From positions 5,009-69,008 of the forward strand of contig JBBTXS010000004.1 of NCBI GenBank assembly GCA_038062115.1: a stretch of DNA of 64,000 nucleotides, read 5' to 3'. This document shows, in pieces, positions 16,401-38,648 of this stretch (position 1 is the stretch's first letter; every line of letters starts with the position of its first letter). This DNA comes from Patescibacteria group bacterium (GTDB lineage Bacteria > Patescibacteriota > Microgenomatia > Levybacterales > UBA12049). A program made the translations under genes and the position numbers. The notes under the pieces were generated by a model. The model was not told the origin of the DNA. It ran no database searches and worked only from the letters and a program-made list of their open reading frames with translations.

Positions 16401-17924
16401 ATGAAAAAAATATTTAATAAATTTATAAAAAAGAAGAATTTTACATTTTTCCTATTGGCTATTGTAATTTTGGGGTCTATTCCGCGATCAATAGAGATAA
16501 TTAGTGGAAATTTTCTTTTTGGGTATGATCAGGGAGTTTTTTTCCAAGCAGTTAAGGAGATTATTGTTAATCATAAGCTTACTCTTATTGGTACGGAAGT
16601 AGGGGGTGGAGGTTTTTTTCAAGGTCCAGGATGGTACTATCTATTGTCAATATCTTTTTATCTATGGAGGGGAGATCCTTATGGAGGAATGATGCTCATG
16701 CTTATAGTAGGGGTTTTGACCATAGCGCTAAGTGTAGTTTTTGGAAGAAAAATATTTGATGGCAAAACTGCGTTAACAATTGGATTTTTTGTAGCCGTAT
16801 CTCCAGCAATTATAGCTCAATCTAGATTTATTTGGCCTCCTTTTGTGATATCTTTACTTTCTGTTTTCTTTGTTTTTTTTCTCTATAAAATTTTGCAAGG
16901 GTCGGGTAAATTTTTTCTTTTACTCACATTTATAGTTGGGCTCATGTTTCACTTTGAGACTGCTACGGGAGCAACTCTTCTTATTCAATTATTAATTATC
17001 TCGCTCTTATTTTTTATAAAGAAAATGGTTTCCTTGAAGTTTTATACTCTTGGCTTGTTGAGTTTTCTTTTTACGCAATTAAGTCTTTTTGTATTCGATA
17101 TCAGGCATGATTTTTTTAATATAAAGGGAATTATTAAAATGTTTACAAATAGCAATAAAGAAGATTCATTATTAAATAGAGTTGATTTGATAAGTAATCA
17201 TATTAGCGTTTTTAGGCAAAATTTCCTTTCTACTTTTCAGATGGCTGATTTGATTTGGCCACTTTTGCTTATAGTTTTATTTATTGGTCTAACATTTTAC
17301 TTTAAGGACAAAAAAAATAAAAAAGAAAAAAAATGGTTGGTTCTATATCTTGCAACTAGCCCTTTAACTTTATTTATTGTGTTTATTTTTTACCCATCAA
17401 CTATGTGGGAATGGTGGATTTTGGAATTAATGATTTTTTACTGTTTTTTATTTGGAGTTATTTTAACTTATTTATTAAAAAATAAATTAATGAGATTTTT
17501 AGTAGTGGCAGTATATATTATTTTCTTTTTATCTTTTGTAAATAAAACCATATTTTTTTATAACAATGACTTTAACGACTTTGGGGGTACGCAAAAAATA
17601 AAGGGAAAGATTGAGGCAATTGATTATATTTATAAAGACGCAAAGGGAAAGCAATTTGGGCTTTTGGTTTTTACTCCACCGGTTTACACTTATGCTTATG
17701 ATTATTTAGTATGGTGGCATGGAAAGAGAAAATATGGTTACATTCCTTTTCAAGAAAAGAAAGACACATTTTATCTACTTATTGAGCAGGATTATGCAAA
17801 GGCATGGAGTTATAAGGGGTGGCTCGAGACGGTTATAAAAACTGGTACAATACTTACGACAAAAGAACTGCCTAGTGGTTTTATTATTCAAAAACGTTTT
17901 AAAGATGAAAAAAGTAAGATATAA
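16401..17924 (+). CDS. Polytopic GT-C-like membrane protein, FGFDQ family (paralog 5)
   Basis: 507 aa. FGYDQGVFFQAVKEIIVNHKLTLIGTE...GPGWYYLL. The C-terminal module is nearly colinear with 13289-14824 (DFGGTQKIKGKIEAIDYIYKDAKGKQFGLLVFTPP...WHGKRKYGYIP...GWLETVIKTG). Confidence 0.65.
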   Translation: MKKIFNKFIKKKNFTFFLLAIVILGSIPRSIEIISGNFLFGYDQGVFFQAVKEIIVNHKLTLIGTEVGGGGFFQGPGWYYLLSISFYLWRGDPYGGMMLMLIVGVLTIALSVVFGRKIFDGKTALTIGFFVAVSPAIIAQSRFIWPPFVISLLSVFFVFFLYKILQGSGKFFLLLTFIVGLMFHFETATGATLLIQLLIISLLFFIKKMVSLKFYTLGLLSFLFTQLSLFVFDIRHDFFNIKGIIKMFTNSNKEDSLLNRVDLISNHISVFRQNFLSTFQMADLIWPLLLIVLFIGLTFYFKDKKNKKEKKWLVLYLATSPLTLFIVFIFYPSTMWEWWILELMIFYCFLFGVILTYLLKNKLMRFLVVAVYIIFFLSFVNKTIFFYNNDFNDFGGTQKIKGKIEAIDYIYKDAKGKQFGLLVFTPPVYTYAYDYLVWWHGKRKYGYIPFQEKKDTFYLLIEQDYAKAWSYKGWLETVIKTGTILTTKELPSGFIIQKRFKDEKSKI

Positions 17925-19578
17925 GAAATATTTATTTTTTATTGGCTTAATAGTTTTATCTTTTATTCCTCTTTTTGACTTACTTCATCCAGGGCTTCCA
18001 ATTACGCATGACGGTCAAGACCACGTGGCTCGTATTGCTAATTTTTACCAAAATCTAAAAGAAGGAAATATTATTCCAAGGTGGGCGCCGAATCTAAATT
18101 GGGGATACGGACATCCAATTTTGATGTTTTTGTATCCTCTGCCTTCGTATTTAGCTTCATTATTCCACTTTTTTGGATTCAGTCTGGTTGATAGCGTAAA
18201 ATTAGTTTTTGGCATATCTTTTATTTTGAGTGCTGTGGCAATGCATCTTTTTACTAAGGAATTACTAAATGATGAAAAAGCAGCATTTTTAGCAAGTTTA
18301 CTTTATGTGATTGCTCCATATAGATTCGTTGATTTATATGTGCGTGGTGCTGTTGGTGAACATGTTGCGTTTATTTTTCCACCCCTTATTTTTTATTTTC
18401 TCTTGAAGTTATCTAAGAAGTTTTCCAAGTGGTATCTTTTGGGAGGATCTTTGTCTTTGGCAGGACTGATTCTGTCACATAACGCAATAAGCTTAATGTT
18501 TTTTCCATTATTTTTTTTATACATTATATATCTTGTTTGGGGAAGCAAAGATAGAAAATACTTAATACTTAATACTTTCTACTTAATACTTTTGGGTTTA
18601 GGCTTATCTGCATTTTTCTTTATACCTGCATTTATGGAAGGAAAGTATACCTTGCGAGATATAGTTACAAGTGGTGGAGAATATAAGGCCAGTTTCGTAA
18701 TATGGAAAGACTTTTTCTACTCAACATGGAGTTATGGAGGTACGCTTGCCTTTAGTAAGCAAATAGGCATGATGCATTGGATTGGTATATTTAGTAGTGT
18801 TATTGCCACATATTATCTATATAAAAATAAAAATAAATTATGGATGGTGAGCTTAGGTGGCTTTCTTATTTTCTGGATAACGCTATTTTTAATGACATCT
18901 GCGTCTGCCACAATTTGGCAATCGATAACCCTACTTCAAAAGTTTCAATTTCCATGGAGATTTCTTTCCCTTACTGTTTTTTTAAGCGCATTGTTGGGCG
19001 CAATAGGATTGCAATTATTTAATGGTAAACATAAGACAGCTTTTCTATTAATACTTACCGTAGCCCTTTTGCTGGTAAATAAAGACTATTGGCATGCAAA
19101 TGGATTCTTGCAAAAACAAGAGAGTTTTTATAGCGGAATCTATAACGGTACTACAGATACCGGTGAGAGCGCGCCCATTTGGTCGGTAAGATTTATGGAA
19201 AAGAGGGCAAAAGCCAATATGGAGGTGATTGCAGGTGACGCAAGAATACGAGGAATAAAAAGAACCTCAACGAGTCATAAATACAAAATAATCGCAACGG
19301 AAAGATCAAGAATTAGGGAGAATACTTTATATTTCCCGGGTTGGGATGTTTTTGTAAACGGGAATAAGGCAGATGTTGAATTTCAGGATTCTCTCAATAG
19401 GGGTCTTATAACATTTTTTGTAGAAAAAGGAGAGAATGACGTTTATATTAAATTTAACGAGACAAAACTGCGGCTAGTTGCAGATATAATTACCGCCGCA
19501 ACATTGGCAGTTGTAGTATCCTATTTAGCATTTGGGCTCAAAAAGAAGTATAATCCCCGGGATGAAAAAGAAAAATAA
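17905..19578 (+). CDS. Polytopic membrane protein, THDG family (PTPS-related-domain / YfhO-like GT-C candidate), paralog 1
   Basis: Start at ATG 17905 (MKKVRYKKYLFF) by analogy with paralog 29290. HPGLPITHDGQDHVARI...PRWAPNLNWGYGHPILMFLYPLPSY. QFPWRFLSL. C-terminal YFPGWDVFVNGNKADVEF...ENDVYIKF is like YfhO tails. Confidence 0.55.
   Translation: MKKVRYKKYLFFIGLIVLSFIPLFDLLHPGLPITHDGQDHVARIANFYQNLKEGNIIPRWAPNLNWGYGHPILMFLYPLPSYLASLFHFFGFSLVDSVKLVFGISFILSAVAMHLFTKELLNDEKAAFLASLLYVIAPYRFVDLYVRGAVGEHVAFIFPPLIFYFLLKLSKKFSKWYLLGGSLSLAGLILSHNAISLMFFPLFFLYIIYLVWGSKDRKYLILNTFYLILLGLGLSAFFFIPAFMEGKYTLRDIVTSGGEYKASFVIWKDFFYSTWSYGGTLAFSKQIGMMHWIGIFSSVIATYYLYKNKNKLWMVSLGGFLIFWITLFLMTSASATIWQSITLLQKFQFPWRFLSLTVFLSALLGAIGLQLFNGKHKTAFLLILTVALLLVNKDYWHANGFLQKQESFYSGIYNGTTDTGESAPIWSVRFMEKRAKANMEVIAGDARIRGIKRTSTSHKYKIIATERSRIRENTLYFPGWDVFVNGNKADVEFQDSLNRGLITFFVEKGENDVYIKFNETKLRLVADIITAATLAVVVSYLAFGLKKKYNPRDEKEK
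18557..18591 (+). repeat. Heptanucleotide repeat block (AATACTT)x3 + TCTACTT + AATACTT inside CDS
   Basis: Read directly; translated KYLILNTFYLIL. 33 of 35 nt identical to 29936-29970 in the paralog. Confidence 0.9.
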
Positions 19579-20978: not shown

Positions 20979-21243
20979 AGCATATCATATAATAGATAAG
21001 TCAATCAGTGCCCAGTATTAACACTTTGGGGGACGGTTCTGAGAAGGGTTGATAGGACAATCTAAGACGAAAGCTCTTTAATTTTATCCTCGATAAATCT
21101 CCGACTTAATCTTGATTTCGCCTGACAATCACAATCCAAGACATTGTCTCTACAGCTCCTCTTCTTTCGTTCCAACATTCTTCCTTCGGCGAGCTCAGGA
21201 CAAGTAATAACATTGGAATAAAAGATTATTGTATAATTAGCAT

Positions 21244-21355
21244 ATGACTGGGTCATAATTGTCATTTCGAGCTTGCCGAGAAATCTCCTTCAAAGAGATT
21301 CCTCGACTCGCTACACTCGCTCGGAATGACAAATGAGTATTTATGTCCCAGTCAC
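21244..21355 (+). mobile_element. MITE copy A (about 112 bp) with terminal and internal inverted repeats and a 9-bp target-site duplication AATTAGCAT
   Basis: Direct repeats aattagcat at 21235-21243 and 21356-21364. Termini are atgactgggtcataa and the reverse complement of gtgactgggacataa. Internal IR gtcatttcgagc/gctcggaatgac. About 90 percent identical to 37915-38027. The right TSD abuts ATG 21365. Confidence 0.85.
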
Positions 21356-21364
21356 AATTAGCAT

Positions 21365-22129
21365 ATGGCGACGGTTTCGGTGGTTTTAGCAACGTATAAC
21401 GAGGAAGAAAACTTACCATCGTGTTTGGAGTCGGTAAAAGACTTGGCAGATGAGATAGTAATAGTTGATGGATCATCAACGGACATAACTGTTCATGTTG
21501 CCAAAAAATATAAAGCAAAGATTTTAGTAACAGATAATCCGCCAATTTTTCATATTAATAAACAAAAAGCTATAAATATGGCGACAAAAGACTGGATTTT
21601 GCAACTTGATGCGGATGAAAGGGTTACGCCAGAACTTGCTAAAGAAATCAAATCACAAATCACAAATCACAAATCACAAATTCATGGTTATTGGATTCCT
21701 AGAAAAAATTGGTTTTTGGGAAGGTTTTTGATGAAAGGCGGACAGTATCCTGATTATACTCTAAGGCTTTACCGCAAAGGCAAAGGGAGGCTACCTCAAA
21801 AAAGCGTTCATGAGCAGGCTATTGTTGATGGAAAAACAGACTATCTTATACATCCTTTAATTCATATTGCGGATCCTAATTTTGCTAGGTATTTGAAGCG
21901 TTTTGATCGTTATACAGACTTAATAGCAAAAGAATTAAAAAGAAAAAAAATAGGATATAATCCAATGGTAGGAATAAAATATATGTTTGGTTTGCCTGTT
22001 TGGTGGTTTTTGTTCACATATATTCGTCATAAGGGTTTTATGGATTTTTGGCAAGGGTTTGTATTTTCATTTTTTTCGGCAATGAGATTTAGTGTTGGAT
22101 ATATAAAATATATAAAAATGCATGGTTAA
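21365..22129 (+). CDS. Family 2 glycosyltransferase
   Basis: 254 aa. VSVVLATYNEEENLPSCLESV...IVIVDGSSTD...LQLDADERV (DXD-type) are GT2 hallmarks. Confidence 0.75.
   Translation: MATVSVVLATYNEEENLPSCLESVKDLADEIVIVDGSSTDITVHVAKKYKAKILVTDNPPIFHINKQKAINMATKDWILQLDADERVTPELAKEIKSQITNHKSQIHGYWIPRKNWFLGRFLMKGGQYPDYTLRLYRKGKGRLPQKSVHEQAIVDGKTDYLIHPLIHIADPNFARYLKRFDRYTDLIAKELKRKKIGYNPMVGIKYMFGLPVWWFLFTYIRHKGFMDFWQGFVFSFFSAMRFSVGYIKYIKMHG
21645..21681 (+). repeat. Heptanucleotide tandem repeat (AAATCAC)x4 with partial flanking units inside GT2 CDS
   Basis: aaatca aaatcac aaatcac aaatcac aaatcac aaat (perfect units 21650-21677), translated KSQITNHKSQI in a loop after LDADERVTPELAKEI. Confidence 0.9.
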
Positions 22130-24653: not shown

Positions 24654-24797
24654 TGTCATTTCGAGCTTGACGGGTTACCGTACGGTAACCCGTCTTGTCG
24701 AGAAATCTTTATCACCGTAGTTGCGAGAGATCCCTCGGCTTCGGGAGGCACTGTCTGGTGTATCCCTTCGCTCGGGATGACAGGTTATAAGGCGAGC
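24654..24797 (+). mobile_element. MITE-family variant carrying a nested 24-26-nt perfect palindrome
   Basis: The 5' end tgtcatttcgagcttg matches MITE A/B. Then comes gacgggttaccg-ta-cggtaacccgtc (24669-24694) bracketed by cttg...cttg, then tcgagaaatc as in A/B. The 3' end gctcgggatgacaggttataaggcgagc resembles the 3' end of the CDS-embedded copy at 30306-30327. Confidence 0.7.
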
Positions 24798-29289: not shown

Positions 29290-31032
29290 ATGAAAGGTAG
29301 ATTATATTCGTTCTTAGCAGTTGTCACAATTCTATTTTTTGCGTTTTTAGCAGGTTTTGCTCTTTTGCATCCTGGGCTGCCGCCTACTCATGATGGCGAG
29401 TATCATGTTATTAGGTTTTATGAATTTGACAAGACATTAAGAGATGATGATTGGTACCCTCGTTGGGCTCCAGACTTAAATAACGGTTTTGGGATTCCAC
29501 TTTTTAACTATGTCTATCCCTTGCCAAACTATTTTTCCTTCATATTGCATCTATTTGGAGTAAGTTTTATTGATGCTTTTAAGCTTAATATGTTTTTTGC
29601 CACAATAATTGGTTCAGCATTTTTTTATTTATGGGCAAGAGAGTTTTGGGGAACAATGGGCGGCGTTGTTTCTTCGGTTTTCTATACCTTTTCTCCATAT
29701 CATTTCGTAGAAATTTATATTAGGGGTTCTGTTGGAGAGGTGTGGGCATTAGCTTTTTTCCCTGCGTTTTTGTGGGCATTTACAAGATTTGTTAAAAATA
29801 AACAAAAAATATTTTTGGCATTTTCTTCTTTATTTTTGGCATTAATTATATTTTCTCACAATATTCTAGCCTTAATGTTTTTCTTTTTCGCTTTATCTTA
29901 CATTGTTTTTTTAATTGCTCAAGTAACGAATAAGAAATACTTAATACTTAATACTTTACACTTAATACTTATTAGTCTTGGCTTATCTTCTATATTTTGG
30001 TTACCTGCAATACTGGAGAGTAACCTTGTAAAAGGACTTGAGATTTTTGATTTAACCGCTCATTTTCCAGATTTATATCAATTGTTAATTCCTTCTTGGG
30101 GATCGGGATTTTCAGGCGAAAGCTTAAACAATCAACTTTCATTTCAAATAGGAATTGCGAATTTATTGGCAGTATTATTAAGTATATTGTTGGTTACTTT
30201 TAAAATATGTAATTTTCGCATTTTTCGTCATTCTGGGGAGCGTAGCGACTCCAGAATCAAAAACAGATTCTGGACAAGACGGGTACCAGACGGTAACCCG
30301 TCAAGCCAGAATGACGGTAAGGCGAGCGCCGTTATTTTCTTTCTGGTTTTCTTTTTCTTTACTTTCTTTTTGATGCTCAAAGCATCTCAACCCATCTGGA
30401 ATAATGCTCCACTAATGAATTACTTTCAATTCCCATGGCGTTTTTTAAGCCTTGAAATTATATTTTCCTCATTTTTGGCTGGAAGCATTATATATTTTTG
30501 TAAATCTAAGATTCTCGCAATTTTCTTGATACTTCTTACTTTTTCTTTAGGGATAGGATACACAAAACCAGCTTATTATCATTACAGAGATGATAATTAT
30601 TATCTCACCCGGTCAAATTTTATCGATGGAACAAATAGCCCTGGTAATGTTTTTAATACAATCTTTTTTAAAACAGATCTAAAAAAACAAAAAGAAAAAT
30701 TATTTTTTTTAGAGGGTAGTGGAAAAATTAATCAAGAGATAGTTAAAAGCACGCGGTATGCTTTTGATATAAAAGCAGAGAAGGATTCAGAAATAAGAGT
30801 AAATACAGCTTATTTTCCGGGATGGGTTATTAAATTAGATGGCAAAAGAATAAAACCTAAAATAGCGAGTAGTGGACTATTTTCATTTAGTATTCCAGAA
30901 GGCCAACACCTTGTTGAGATCAAGTTTACGGATACTCCTGCAAGGATTATAGGAGCATTTGGCTTTATTTTATCATCGTTTATTCTTATTGCTTTGTCTA
31001 TTAGGGTTGTGTTTGCTACAATTAGAAGATGA
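29290..31032 (+). CDS. Polytopic membrane protein, THDG family (PTPS-related-domain / YfhO-like GT-C candidate), paralog 2
   Basis: 580 aa. HPGLPPTHDGEYHVIRF...PRWAPDLNNGFGIPLFNYVYPLPNY, QFPWRFLSL and C-terminal YFPGWVIKLDGKRIKP...QHLVEIKF are colinear with 17905-19578. Confidence 0.55.
   Translation: MKGRLYSFLAVVTILFFAFLAGFALLHPGLPPTHDGEYHVIRFYEFDKTLRDDDWYPRWAPDLNNGFGIPLFNYVYPLPNYFSFILHLFGVSFIDAFKLNMFFATIIGSAFFYLWAREFWGTMGGVVSSVFYTFSPYHFVEIYIRGSVGEVWALAFFPAFLWAFTRFVKNKQKIFLAFSSLFLALIIFSHNILALMFFFFALSYIVFLIAQVTNKKYLILNTLHLILISLGLSSIFWLPAILESNLVKGLEIFDLTAHFPDLYQLLIPSWGSGFSGESLNNQLSFQIGIANLLAVLLSILLVTFKICNFRIFRHSGERSDSRIKNRFWTRRVPDGNPSSQNDGKASAVIFFLVFFFFTFFLMLKASQPIWNNAPLMNYFQFPWRFLSLEIIFSSFLAGSIIYFCKSKILAIFLILLTFSLGIGYTKPAYYHYRDDNYYLTRSNFIDGTNSPGNVFNTIFFKTDLKKQKEKLFFLEGSGKINQEIVKSTRYAFDIKAEKDSEIRVNTAYFPGWVIKLDGKRIKPKIASSGLFSFSIPEGQHLVEIKFTDTPARIIGAFGFILSSFILIALSIRVVFATIRR
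29936..29970 (+). repeat. Heptanucleotide repeat block (AATACTT)x3 + TACACTT + AATACTT inside CDS
   Basis: Read directly; translated KYLILNTLHLIL. Same architecture and codon phase as 18557-18591. Confidence 0.9.
30226..30327 (+). mobile_element. MITE-family element embedded in-frame in the THDG-family CDS (about 102 nt, 34 codons)
   Basis: Perfect 11-bp IR cgtcattctgg (30226-30236) / ccagaatgacg (30306-30316). Inner palindrome acgggtaccagacggtaacccgt is bracketed by caag...caag. Tail gtaaggcgagc is shared with 24654-24797. Translated FRHSGERSDSRIKNRFWTRRVPDGNPSSQNDGKAS. The paralog 17905-19578 has no counterpart (YKNKNKLW). Confidence 0.8.
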
Positions 31033-37910: not shown

Positions 37911-37914
37911 TATT

Positions 37915-38027
37915 ATGACTGGGTCACAATTGTCATTTCGAGCTTGCCGAGAAATCTCCTTCAACGAGATTCCTCGACTCGCTCACGCTCGCTCGGAATG
38001 ACAAATGGGTATTTATGACCCAGCCAT
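37915..38027 (+). mobile_element. MITE copy B (about 113 bp) with a 9-bp target-site duplication ACTAATATT
   Basis: Direct repeats actaatatt at 37906-37914 (containing the flippase stop TAA 37908-37910) and 38028-38036. Termini are atgactgggtcacaa and the reverse complement of atggctgggtcataa. Same internal structure as copy A. Confidence 0.85.
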
Positions 38028-38075
38028 ACTAATATTATGGCAATAAAGCTTAGTATTTGATAATATGGGCTAGCT

Positions 38076-38648
38076 ATGGAGTTTATTACTCTTGCAAATA
38101 AAGATAAAGTAAAGCTTATTAAAGATGTCTTATTACATCCGCTCAAGATTAATAGCGATAAGACTGGAGTTTTGGTTGAGACACTTAGAACCGATTGGAA
38201 AGGAATTTATGGAAAAGATAGAGAATTTTTTATGCAATATTATTCTATTACGGCCCCTGGAATTGCACGAGACGAAAACATTTGGCATTATCATCCAACA
38301 ATCCAAGAGGATAGATTTTTGGTGGCAAAAGGGGAGATTGTCGTTGCAGTTTTTGACAATCGAAGTAAATCTTCAACAAAGGGCATTTTAAACTTATTTT
38401 ATATGCAGGCAGATAAAGATCCATATATATTATTGATTACCAAAAGAGTTCTTCATGGATTTTTGGTTGTCTCAAAAGAGCCCGCAGTTGTTCTTAATTC
38501 CCCAACGTCTATTTATGATCCCAAAGAAGAATCTCGCATTTCGTTTAGAGAGGCTCAAGTTAAGGTTGGGAATGGCTCTTTGTTCTCATGGGATCAAGTT
38601 CGTAAATTTTTCTCCCAAGAAAGCATTAGATCAAATGGAAAAGCTTGA
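38076..38648 (+). CDS. RmlC-like cupin protein
   Basis: 190 aa. NIWHYHPTIQEDRFLVAKGEIVVAVFDNRSKSSTKG...VLHGF follows the cupin epimerase pattern. Confidence 0.55.
   Translation: MEFITLANKDKVKLIKDVLLHPLKINSDKTGVLVETLRTDWKGIYGKDREFFMQYYSITAPGIARDENIWHYHPTIQEDRFLVAKGEIVVAVFDNRSKSSTKGILNLFYMQADKDPYILLITKRVLHGFLVVSKEPAVVLNSPTSIYDPKEESRISFREAQVKVGNGSLFSWDQVRKFFSQESIRSNGKA

Follow-up and report, generated by a model that had tools for sequence, protein, structure and literature searches.

In the gene at 29290-31032, a non-coding, GC-rich double-hairpin repeat has very probably inserted in frame into a short basic loop between two membrane helices; translation through the insert, purging of frame-breaking copies and spread on recombined gene segments are proposed for its history. 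The window, which is the whole stretch of 64,000 nucleotides analysed, comes from an ultra-small groundwater bacterium of the Levybacteria (Patescibacteria). The repeat belongs to a multi-copy family found mostly in the Candidate Phyla Radiation (CPR), and its site is empty in most homologues of the host gene.

The insert and its host gene

The preliminary description placed a segment of 34 codons within this gene, and its coordinates, sequence and frame are as it gave them. The features are listed below.

29290..31032, plus strand: host gene for a polytopic membrane protein of 580 residues, an intact open reading frame that carries the insert in frame
30226..30327, plus strand: whole insert, 102 nt or 34 codons including the tail, translated as RHSGERSDSRIKNRFWTRRVPDGNPSSQNDGKAS
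30226..30258, plus strand: arm 1, with a CGTCAT head, stem TCTGG(GGAG), loop CGTAGCGA, stem (CTCC)AGA and ATC tail
30259..30265, strand not applicable: central spacer AAAAACA between the two inverted arms, different in every copy
30266..30316, minus strand: arm 2, read on the minus strand as CGTCATTCTGG - CTTG[ACGGGTTACCGTCTGGTACCCGT]CTTGT - CCAGAATC, from a relaxed head-hairpin-tail scan
30278..30302, strand not applicable: nested inner palindrome GACGGGTACC-AGAC-GGTAACCCGTC, with a relative at 24670-24695
30317..30327, plus strand: tail GTAAGGCGAGC, within which the 10-mer TAAGGCGAGC is common only to the element at 24.7 kb
17875..19578, plus strand: paralogue with an empty site and the loop YKNKNKLW, 32% identical to the host

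The terminal inverted repeat CGTCATTCTGG/CCAGAATGACG is perfect over 11 bp and occurs in the window only at these two places; it and the inner palindrome are present as first described. The tail had been said to recur in the 24.7-kb variant. The 10-mer TAAGGCGAGC is present in both, with exactly 2 occurrences in the window (24788 and 30318) against about 0.03 expected by chance, as estimated from base composition, and both copies lie a few bases past the terminal ATGAC of such an element. The exact 12-mer tail, however, is unique, with no second occurrence in the window when one mismatch is allowed.

The insert folds at -50.4 kcal/mol (z = -7.3), and none of 200 shuffled sequences is equally stable. 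Its 91-nt core has a folding z of -8.2. The GC content of the element is 0.53, compared with 0.32 in the rest of the gene. No Rfam family matches anywhere in the window at gathering thresholds, and no terminator or promoter created by the element was found inside the gene.

The host protein is of the PTPS_related/YfhO type (Pfam PF10131 at 2.2e-14, with a C-terminal YfhO match) and has 1098 homologues at E<=1e-20. Its AF2 model (pLDDT 83, pTM 0.86) is matched by Foldseek to PglB, AglB, AftD, ArnT and Pmt4 with a probability of 1.00. The acidic motif H34-D35-G36 in the first external loop is invariant. By sequence and predicted GT-C fold, the host is a GT-C-type membrane glycosyltransferase-like protein with putative catalytic activity. 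All 56 family-invariant residues on both sides of the insert are kept, as are most of the near-invariant ones, and the downstream QFPWRFLSL motif is intact. Independent assemblies from wells H51 and H41 agree over the whole gene, with 0 mismatches in 1743 nt, and the insert is therefore not an assembly artefact.

Many further GT-C paralogues lie in tandem close to the host gene. Given such redundancy, and an insert made of selfish DNA, the gene could be a dispensable pseudogene in decay and the insert a form of damage. This is extremely improbable for a frame that is intact over 580 codons, keeps 56 of 56 invariant residues on both sides of the insert, yields a confident AF2 model and has the same sequence in two wells, with similar in-frame inserts kept in four other lineages.

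The insert lies between hydrophobic helices at about residues 283-313 and 344-362, a position that agrees with the earlier account, and the paralogue does have YKNKNKLW at this point. In the AF2 model, residues 316-341 are coil with pLDDT below 50 and are flanked by confident helices. In the host topology, long acidic loops alternate with short basic loops, and the inserted loop contains 8 K+R residues compared with 4 D+E. Charge and topology thus place it in the cytoplasm, and given the predicted disorder the translated loop is most likely floppy there. Tryptic peptides expected across the insert include FWTR and VPDGNPSSQNDGK, and junction peptides such as IFR/HSGER.

The gene would be translated straight through the insert, which would give a disordered cytoplasmic loop of roughly 34 residues with a net positive charge (+4); the open frame and the conserved downstream residues point to this. 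Such a loop may be tolerated because it is positively charged on the inside, as was the ancestral K-KKN-KK loop, and is distant from the extracytoplasmic, catalytic face. Copies with a stop or a disrupted frame would presumably be purged, so that open-frame copies remain.

The repeat family in the window and in public genomes

The window contains three copies that are related to the insert.

24654..24797, plus strand: intergenic relative, a double hairpin TGTCATTTCGAGC...GCTCGGGATGACA that shares its nested palindrome module and its TAAGGCGAGC tail with the insert
21243..21369, plus strand: intergenic relative of the GTCATTTCGAGC subfamily, nested in the outer inverted repeat GACTGGGTCATAA/TTATGTCCCAGTC
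37914..38041, plus strand: second copy of the 21.2-kb element, with halves 97% and 82% identical, upstream of gene 38076-38648

The element at 21243-21369 abuts the start of gene 21365-22129.

The census of the family comprises at least 117 stretches, among which 96-97 are complete elements. At least 97 copies with the same architecture are present in public genomes, mostly of the CPR. Several copies occur per genome, on multiple contigs of single MAGs (for example JACPZF01, PEZH01 and JBBTXK01). One family match (L061) belongs to a MAG with a Rickettsiales label. Viral contigs contain 0 matches to the architecture pattern and therefore provide no evidence for phage carriage.

The members share one design, in which two inverted arms, each made up of CGTCAT, the stem ATTCTGG, a variable loop, the stem CCAGAAT and C, are separated by a variable spacer. 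The loops often contain further nested palindromes. Arm 1 of the insert is of the common 'GGAGCG.AGCGACT' type, which recurs in loci L016, L017, L031, L036, L048, L052, L064 and others. Arm 2 is of the 'CTTGT' type with a nested palindrome, and its loop module is also found at 24.66 kb, there with different stems. Nested palindromes between CAAG brackets are present in L064, L075, L078, L089 and L090 as well.

Among the matches listed, 36-37 of the 96-97 copies (~37%) are in frame. An element is counted as intragenic when its frame stays open over 50 codons or more to either side, and the ~37% is not an unbiased insertion spectrum because this definition counts gene-disrupting copies as 'other'. 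The length is a multiple of three in 19 of 36 intragenic copies versus 19 of 60 others, a difference that is suggestive but depends on how the ends are defined.

Pfam domains are found in 16 of the 20 hosts tested. The hosts with this support include RecF, TrmD, FemAB, a class-I aaRS, PheT, ArgRS, UvrB, UvrD and GuaA, together with peptidase A24, PMT_2 (three hosts), Wzy_C and DUF2298. In many hosts the element sits at the boundary between a helix end and a basic loop, and the same element-derived peptides turn up in unrelated proteins that carry it. The flanks are rich in T, which makes up 50% of the letters at positions -1 and -2 in a logo of 192 ends. This flank logo contains no repeated di- to octanucleotide that would mark a target-site duplication.

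Filled and empty sites among homologues

Of 121 aligned homologues, about 114 (~94%) have an empty site, where only a short loop of basic character (K-KKN-KK) is present. Inserts bounded by RHSG...QND are present at the same codon only in P0001, P0002, P0007, P0010 and P0018. This predominance of empty sites and the multi-copy family bear out the proposed origin of the insert from repeated, selfish DNA. In all five inserts the motifs CGTCATTCTGG, CCAGAATC, GATTCTGG and CCAGAATGACG are nearly invariant; across the five copies there are only 2 deviations from the four consensus stem words, which are conserved even at synonymous positions. Between the motifs the five inserts are unrelated in sequence, and their length ranges from about 21 to about 48 residues. 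The flanks of the five insert alleles are only about 65-80% identical.

The preliminary description proposed that the host protein tolerates, or uses, the loop. Tolerance agrees with the family-invariant residues kept on both sides. Use by the host, for example as a cytoplasmic docking or regulatory segment, is very unlikely. In favour of use, five lineages and two wells retain the reading frame, the net positive charge suits a cytoplasmic loop, and the residues RHSG, RI, RFW and QND recur. However, the recurring residues are merely translated stem words, the peptide between the stems is not conserved among carriers in sequence or length, and the loop is predicted to be disordered. The same peptides are also found in unrelated proteins where the element lands. 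The suggestion of use is thus not borne out.

The carriers are not monophyletic, and their nearest relatives, P0041 (88%) and P0012/P0003 (80-83%), are empty. At the DNA level, the carrier L005 and the empty L009 have an identity of 0.97-1.00 on both sides and of 0.44-0.70 around the insert. Between L005 and the carrier L003, the identity is 0.79-0.84 just upstream of the insert and 0.73-0.76 just downstream. In sliding windows, carrier-empty pairs dip in identity, whereas the empty-empty pairs used as a control do not. The alleles with an insert are set in a flanking haplotype of their own, and homologous recombination has exchanged at least one of them, since L005 and L009 are near-identical except for the divergent patch at the insert. 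Mosaicism is strong throughout the host gene, and the pattern of filled and empty sites, mostly empty with five carriers, has been shaped by homologous recombination of an insert-bearing cassette. Non-monophyly had been taken as proof of independent insertion; this argument was withdrawn when the sliding-window analysis showed recombined patches.

The databases contain no near-identical empty allele of the same species, the next homologue being 63% identical, and the alignments of filled and empty DNA are too diverged to define exact junctions. A metagenome scan for junctions returned already known alleles and 4 chance matches, with no new carrier types.

The five elements lie both ways, with the arm order of the window copy and L003 swapped relative to L004, L005 and L006. 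Opposite orientations and different arm types at an identical codon are what repeated independent insertion at a hotspot would produce, in contrast to a single old insertion with later shuffling. At the hotspot, the element would favour T-run/A-run junctions, such as arise between a Phe-rich helix end and a Lys-rich loop (TTT TTT / AGG AAG AAT AAA). The nested palindrome and tail of the window copy match a copy in its own genome and not the orthologous inserts, and T-rich flanks and helix-end/basic-loop boundaries recur across the family and its many hosts. Repeated insertion is a possibility to be taken seriously, though not a probable one. The flanking haplotype is common to the carriers, and a recombined patch distinguishes the two members of at least one carrier/empty pair; this explains the patchy distribution of carriers without new insertions. 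In-situ inversion or gene conversion could yield the differences in orientation and arm type, and the carriers number only five, with no new types from the metagenome scan.

The extreme constancy of the stem words between alleles with about 35-40% divergence could reflect a selected nucleic-acid function and not pure selfishness. In Neisseria, the NTS/dRS3 Ssn-related motifs (SRM) are cleaved by small GIY-YIG ssDNA nucleases, Ssn; these motifs cluster near variable surface genes and modulate transformation (PMC11893778). By comparison with the NTS, the double hairpin might be kept in the gene as an Ssn-cleavable DNA site that shapes uptake or recombination of incoming ssDNA, and the surface-glycosylation locus would then consist of exchangeable cassettes. 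It might also be kept as an RNA signal, an mRNA structure modulating translation or stability. Stem words that are almost invariant at synonymous sites too, between flanks about 65-80% identical, are consistent with such a role, as are the very stable hairpin (z about -7 to -8), the divergent haplotype patches centred on the insert and the gene-wide mosaicism. Even so, it is an unlikely explanation. About 94% of homologues function without the insert, and stem conservation equally fits recent or independent copies or gene conversion from other copies. The element lies in the centre of the divergent patch and not at its end, and it creates no terminator or promoter signal and has no Rfam match.

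In the preferred reading, that of a double-hairpin repeat inserted in frame, the element would spread and be homogenised as single-stranded DNA hairpins. The most plausible agent would be an Ssn-type single-domain GIY-YIG nuclease, as for the Neisseria NTS, and/or gene conversion between copies. Recombined gene segments would then carry the element between lineages.

Comparison with known repeat systems

The arms resemble the NTS of Neisseria. The unit in both is CGTCAT, a stem starting TTC.., a loop, the complementary stem and ATC; the NTS reads CGTCATTCCCGCG..CGCGGGAATC and the window copy CGTCATTCTGG..CCAGAATC. The SRM layout of a (C/T)GTCAT head, a hairpin and an ATC tail is found in both arms, on the plus strand at 30226-30258 and on the minus strand at 30266-30316. 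The published degenerate SRM string, HGTCWYN(0-2)YYVSBRHN(0-5)WNVSBRGN(0-2)RNCYNB, has 0 matches in the window, because the stems and loops of the window copy are longer. In 840 kb of element-bearing loci it has 28 matches, with 12 canonical GTCATTCCCGC heads and only 4 CGTCATTCTGGC heads. SRM/NTS occur in hundreds of hairpin-forming copies, are enriched in symbionts and are tied to variable surface-related genes; the same paper makes no mention of Patescibacteria or of intragenic in-frame copies (PMC11893778).

SRM/NTS are associated with a small single-domain GIY-YIG gene (cd10448), which the motif often flanks. No GIY-YIG gene is present within the 64-kb window. Three PF01541 ORFs of 82-103 aa are found in the element-bearing loci L028, L033 and L067 (by Pfam, with sub-threshold NCBIfam matches only). 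The L067 ORF, of 95 aa, has a GTCATTTC-type element directly downstream, and GTCAT hairpins flank the L028 ORF on either side. Small GIY-YIG ORFs are found in the same CPR loci as canonical GTCATTCCCGC heads.

The RPEs are palindromic elements of Rickettsia (Ogata et al. 2000, Science 290:347; summarised in PMC10969869). Like them, the repeats of the insert family are palindromic and non-autonomous, measure only about 100-150 bp and reside in a host-dependent bacterium with a reduced genome. A large proportion of the copies is in frame in many unrelated genes, including housekeeping genes, and the inserts would be translated as extra segments compatible with the protein fold. The insert comes from a different phylum (CPR/Patescibacteria, as against Rickettsia), and the likeness drawn here is one of behaviour. 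It also differs in being built of two inverted NTS/SRM-like hairpins with hypervariable, nestable loops, so that it encodes no single conserved peptide beyond the stem words, and in that the insert travels on recombined gene segments.

The Ssn-target layout of the units links the literature on RPE-type 'protein-coding palindromes' with that on NTS/dRS3/SRM, and it suggests a testable enzyme for the movement of such elements. The literature yielded nothing on MITEs or palindromic elements of the CPR, nor on a link between RPEs and GIY-YIG nucleases. Tentatively, double hairpins of the ATTCTGG type may correspond in the CPR to the RPEs, with both belonging to the Ssn/SRM world, in which small GIY-YIG single-strand nucleases would mobilise or homogenise ssDNA hairpins that insert preferentially at T-run/A-run junctions. 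In AT-rich genomes such junctions would fall at domain-linker boundaries and where a helix end borders on a Lys-rich loop. Should this reading hold, it would fill a gap by providing a mobilisation mechanism for palindromic elements that lie in frame. Essential proteins across the phylum would then carry a layer of translated selfish peptides, and surface-glycosylation genes would contain portable recombination cassettes.

To our knowledge, palindromic selfish DNA that colonises genes in frame had been regarded as peculiar to Rickettsia; the same behaviour is now seen in the CPR. The inserts inflate and distort CPR protein families with spurious low-complexity loops (for example the RHSG.../VILG...ARMT peptides) and mark recombination-prone segments. 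They also serve as natural experiments that reveal which loops of a protein can accommodate about 25-50 additional residues.

Neisserial intergenic mosaic elements (NIMEs) and REP/BIME arrays consist of variable segments enclosed by short, conserved palindromes (dRS3 or REP) whose orientation alternates, and REPs are tied to RAYT (TnpA_REP, HUH) transposases. The insert family is likewise mosaic, modular and linked to recombination. NIMEs, REPs and BIMEs are extragenic by definition, whereas the insert is intragenic and in frame, as is ~37% of its family.

Intragenic MITEs of other bacteria include ERIC, Correia/NEMIS, Nezha and the Anabaena MITEs, with occasional in-frame ORF fusion (PMC10969869). 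The preliminary description named the insert a MITE, and it is small and multi-copy, has terminal inverted repeats and has as its longest peptide only the read-through of the host frame. MITEs, however, have recognisable target-site duplications and cognate IS transposases, and no duplication was found here; the insert instead consists of two CGTCAT-hairpin-ATC units that are inverted relative to each other and belong to the NTS/dRS3/SRM type. In-frame cases are exceptions among MITEs, whereas about a third of the copies in this family are in ORFs. In its behaviour, and by analogy, the insert can be regarded as the CPR counterpart of the RPE.

The insert and its host protein

Hairpin elements in the window
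30226-30327, + strand: insert inside the intact 580-codon ORF 29290-31032
30226-30258, + strand: arm 1 of the insert, CGTCAT-TCTGG...CCAGA-ATC layout
30266-30316, - strand: arm 2 of the insert, same layout
21243-21369 and 37914-38041: 127-nt element in two copies, with 97% and 82% identity in its halves
24654-24797: intergenic element of the GTCATTTCGAG subfamily, tail TAAGGCGAGC as in the insert

The insert, including its tail, is 102 nt (34 codons) long and reads, in the frame of the intact host gene, RHSGERSDSRIKNRFWTRRVPDGNPSSQNDGKAS, as the preliminary description had it. Its terminal 11-mers, CGTCATTCTGG and CCAGAATGACG, are the perfect inverted repeat described earlier and have no other occurrence within the window. 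The folding energy is -50.4 kcal/mol (z = -7.3), and none of 200 shuffles is equally stable. The G+C content is 53% in the insert and 32% in the host gene. The tail was said to recur in the element at 24.7 kb. This holds for the 10-mer TAAGGCGAGC, which occurs exactly twice in 64 kb (24788 and 30318), both times starting a few bases past an element's terminal ATGAC, and fails for the 12-mer, which occurs once in the window. The window is from a Levybacteria-like bacterium of the Patescibacteria, and the host gene has 0 mismatches between assemblies from two wells (Hainich groundwater). An Rfam search of the whole window gives no family. No terminator or promoter signal created by the insert was found, nor any target-site duplication around it or the family copies.

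The host protein matches the Pfam family PTPS_related (PF10131) and has a YfhO C-terminal match. Its AlphaFold2 model, which uses 47 homologues, is confident (pLDDT 83, pTM 0.86), and this predicted structure matches the GT-C glycosyltransferases PglB, AglB, AftD, ArnT, and Pmt4. The insert (residues 316-341 of the protein) is coil with the lowest confidence in the model (pLDDT <50) and lies between helices 283-313 and 344-362, in agreement with the earlier placement between two hydrophobic helices. The loops of the host are by turns long and acidic or short and basic. Because the insert is basic (K+R 8, D+E 4) and follows an acidic, external loop, the topology prediction proposed earlier would, by the positive-inside rule, make it a cytoplasmic loop. 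All 56 family-invariant residues are kept, on both sides of the insert, and the gene does not have the look of a pseudogene.

Filled and empty sites among orthologues

The presence or absence of the insert, a check suggested in the preliminary description, is read from an alignment of the best 120 of 1098 homologues and the paralogue 17875-19578 (121 sequences). Approximately 114 of these contain only 7-14 residues in place of the 44 of the query, and the usual loop at the empty site is K/R-KKN-KK. Inserts that start with RHSG and end with QND(G) are present at the identical codon in five sequences (the query, P0002, P0007, P0010, and P0018). Two further homologues, P0030 (RTNLADLRLHIFLGSLGMKQ) and P0101 (NRSLSSEIKNQRSNIKNAVKGQ), have unrelated insertions of ~15-17 residues in the same loop, which therefore tolerates indels generally.

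The five carriers have a common DNA layout, CGTCATTCTGG - loop1 - CCAGAATC - spacer - GATTCTGG - loop3 - CCAGAATGACG. The four stem words deviate from the consensus at only two positions over all five copies, and the stretches between them are unrelated and 5 to 76 nt long. In each element, a 'CTTGT'-type arm is paired with a long-loop arm. The arm order in the window and locus L003 is opposite to that in L004, L005, and L006, and the elements therefore occur in both orientations.

The carriers are not monophyletic. Carrier P0010 is most similar to P0041 (88%), and carriers P0002 and P0007 to P0012 and P0003 (80-83%); all of these relatives have empty sites. Repeated insertion at a hotspot, at the same codon, may explain this pattern. 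Non-monophyly is not accepted as proof of it because of a recombined patch between L005 (carrier) and L009 (empty). In a codon alignment, their DNA is 97-100% identical over columns 170-270 and 390-510, and identity drops to 0.44-0.70 in a patch of ~100 codons with the insert at its centre. Within the patch, identity between L005 and the carrier L003 is 0.79-0.84 directly upstream of the insert and 0.73-0.76 directly downstream. Carrier-empty pairs dip near the loop (0.64-0.75 vs 0.83-0.90 elsewhere), but control empty-empty pairs do not (0.87 and 0.90 around the loop vs 0.77 and 0.86 elsewhere). The insert-bearing alleles therefore make up a cassette that has flanks of its own and is moved by homologous recombination.

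A single insertion followed by recombination and conversion may instead be the source of the patchy carriers. The nested palindrome and tail of the window copy are common to the copy at 24654-24797 in its own genome and not to the orthologous inserts. This likeness and the opposite orientations speak against one insertion inherited unchanged, and suggest either at least two events or conversion by other copies in the genome.

Mosaicism extends over the whole locus. Between the window and L007, which have 246 31-mers in common, identity is 97% in the first 30 codons and ~55% further on. About ten large genes for polytopic membrane proteins, several of which are mutual paralogues (direct repeats D4 and D7), stand in tandem at ~8500-31000. 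GT4, dTDP-sugar, and aminotransferase genes come after this array, and its orthologous loci are strongly mosaic.

The family and its in-frame copies

A scan of a species-representative genome collection, with a pattern in which three of the four stem words must be present, finds at least 117 matching stretches. Among the matches listed, the hosts are mostly Microgenomates (Roizman-, Gottesman-, Curtiss-, Levy-, Davies-, and Shapirobacteria) and other members of the Candidate Phyla Radiation (CPR), there are several copies per genome, and 96-97 elements are complete, with lengths of 65-150 nt. The recurring arm types are CTTGT/ACAAG, GGAGCGAAGCGACT, TAAGCGAAGCGCAT, CAAGCGAAGCGCGT, and GGACGAAC..GAGGACT. 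No copies were found in the viral contigs scanned, and a metagenome scan found no further carrier types. A few MAGs with the exact four-word architecture of the ATTCTGG type, the window copy's subfamily, are labelled Beta- or Gammaproteobacteria, Ignavibacteriaceae, Rickettsiales, or Kordiimonadaceae, and the architecture is also on a 5.0-Mb Arenicellales chromosome. These loci outside CPR labels (L013, L028, L034, L037-L039, L045, L052, L059, L061, L066, L071, L080, L084, and L088; GC 0.36 to 0.63) would be explained either by horizontal spread over a very wide range or by bins with wrong labels.

Arm loops often hold extra palindromes bracketed CAAG...CAAG, and arm 2 of the window insert is built in just this way. 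Examples (CTTG on the other strand) are in L064, L075, L078, L089, L090, L117, and the window at 30274-30305. The repeated CAAG looks like a 4-nt duplication left when a smaller hairpin inserted into a larger hairpin's single-stranded loop. The arm 1 loop module of 24654-24797 (CTTGACGGGTTACCGT..ACCCGTCTTGT) is that of the insert's arm 2, on a different stem, which suggests that subfamilies exchange loop modules. The two 127-nt copies are GTCATTTCGAGC...GCTCGGAATGAC double hairpins within an outer 13-bp inverted repeat (GACTGGGTCATAA/TTATGNCCCAGTC). Because genes start directly downstream of both (21365 and 38076), they could be mobile 5' regulatory modules. A CGTCAT-TCTCTC...GAGAGA-ATC head-hairpin-tail segment inside the paralogue (19390-19441, - strand) is probably a chance match: its loop is AT-rich, and the segment falls in a conserved region of the C-terminal domain.

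Among the matches listed, 36-37 of the 96-97 complete elements (~37%) are intragenic, with a frame free of stops for at least 50 codons to either side; this definition leaves any gene-disrupting copies among the other 60. Pfam domains are present in 16 of the 20 host ORFs scanned.

Examples of hosts of intragenic copies identified by Pfam
RecF, TrmD, FemAB, class-I aminoacyl-tRNA synthetase, PheT, ArgRS, UvrB, UvrD, GuaA
Prepilin peptidase, PMT_2 glycosyltransferases (n = 3), Wzy_C ligase, DUF2298

Two of the three phases are commonly used, starting with RHSG/CHSG (21 copies) or VIL(G) (13 copies) and ending with either ..QND or ..ARMT. The third (SFW..) is nearly absent among intragenic copies (2). 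Intragenic copies mostly have 3-4 of six frames open, and other copies mostly 1-2. For many intragenic copies, the site is the end of a hydrophobic helix or a stretch between two domains. The L087 host ORF (Wzy_C and TPR domains) contains two inserts in frame, each of a different subfamily: VILGRSESDDSRIKTKIDSGQARMT belongs to the ATTCTGG type, and VIPAQAGIH...HGNDK, further downstream, to the NTS-like GTCATTCCCGC type.

Relation to known repeats

The Neisseria repeat NTS (CGTCATTCCCGCGMAVGCGGGAATCYRG) contains the 20-bp dRS3 and is a hairpin oriented by its CGTCAT head; it is bound and cut, only as single-stranded DNA, by the single-domain GIY-YIG protein SsnA (PMC11893778, 2025). Ssn-related motifs (SRM) are found on the flanks of ssn genes across many phyla, and symbionts, e.g. 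Rickettsia and Wolbachia, have them in abundance; neither Patescibacteria nor intragenic copies are mentioned there (PMC11893778). Both arms of the window element have the CGTCAT-TCTGG...CCAGA-ATC layout, and its sequence thus reads as two SRM-like hairpins in inverted orientation. The window element is a putative member of the SRM group; the degenerate string published for SRM has no match in the window. In element-bearing loci, the string matches 12 canonical GTCATTCCCGC heads and four CGTCATTCTGGC heads.

The 64-kb window contains no GIY-YIG gene. Element-bearing loci contain three small PF01541 ORFs, two of which adjoin GTCAT hairpins. In L033, an 82-aa GIY-YIG ORF (105-350) is flanked by two tRNA-like segments that are partly duplicated (..GGACTCGAACCCAGGACAC..CTCTAACCAACTGAGCTA and, on the opposite flank, ..GGCTCGAACCCAGGACAC..ATAACCAACTGAGCTAACGACCC), as if inserted into a tRNA gene.

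Rickettsia palindromic elements (RPE) occupy many unrelated genes in frame and, in the account of them cited here, were judged compatible with the fold (Ogata et al. 2000, via PMC10969869). They are the closest precedent of the CPR element in behaviour, and the NTS, dRS3, and SRM hairpins are closest in structure. BIME and the dRS3-bracketed mosaic elements of Neisseria are comparable to the inverted hairpin pair. A literature search found no publication on such elements in CPR and none tying the behaviour of RPE to Ssn motifs. Taken alone, the locus exemplifies a known phenomenon in an ordinary way. What appears to be undescribed is the picture for the family as a whole: a CPR-wide range, approximately one third of copies translated (as predicted from open frames), some of them in essential genes, units of the SRM type, loops that can be nested, and transport on recombined cassettes.
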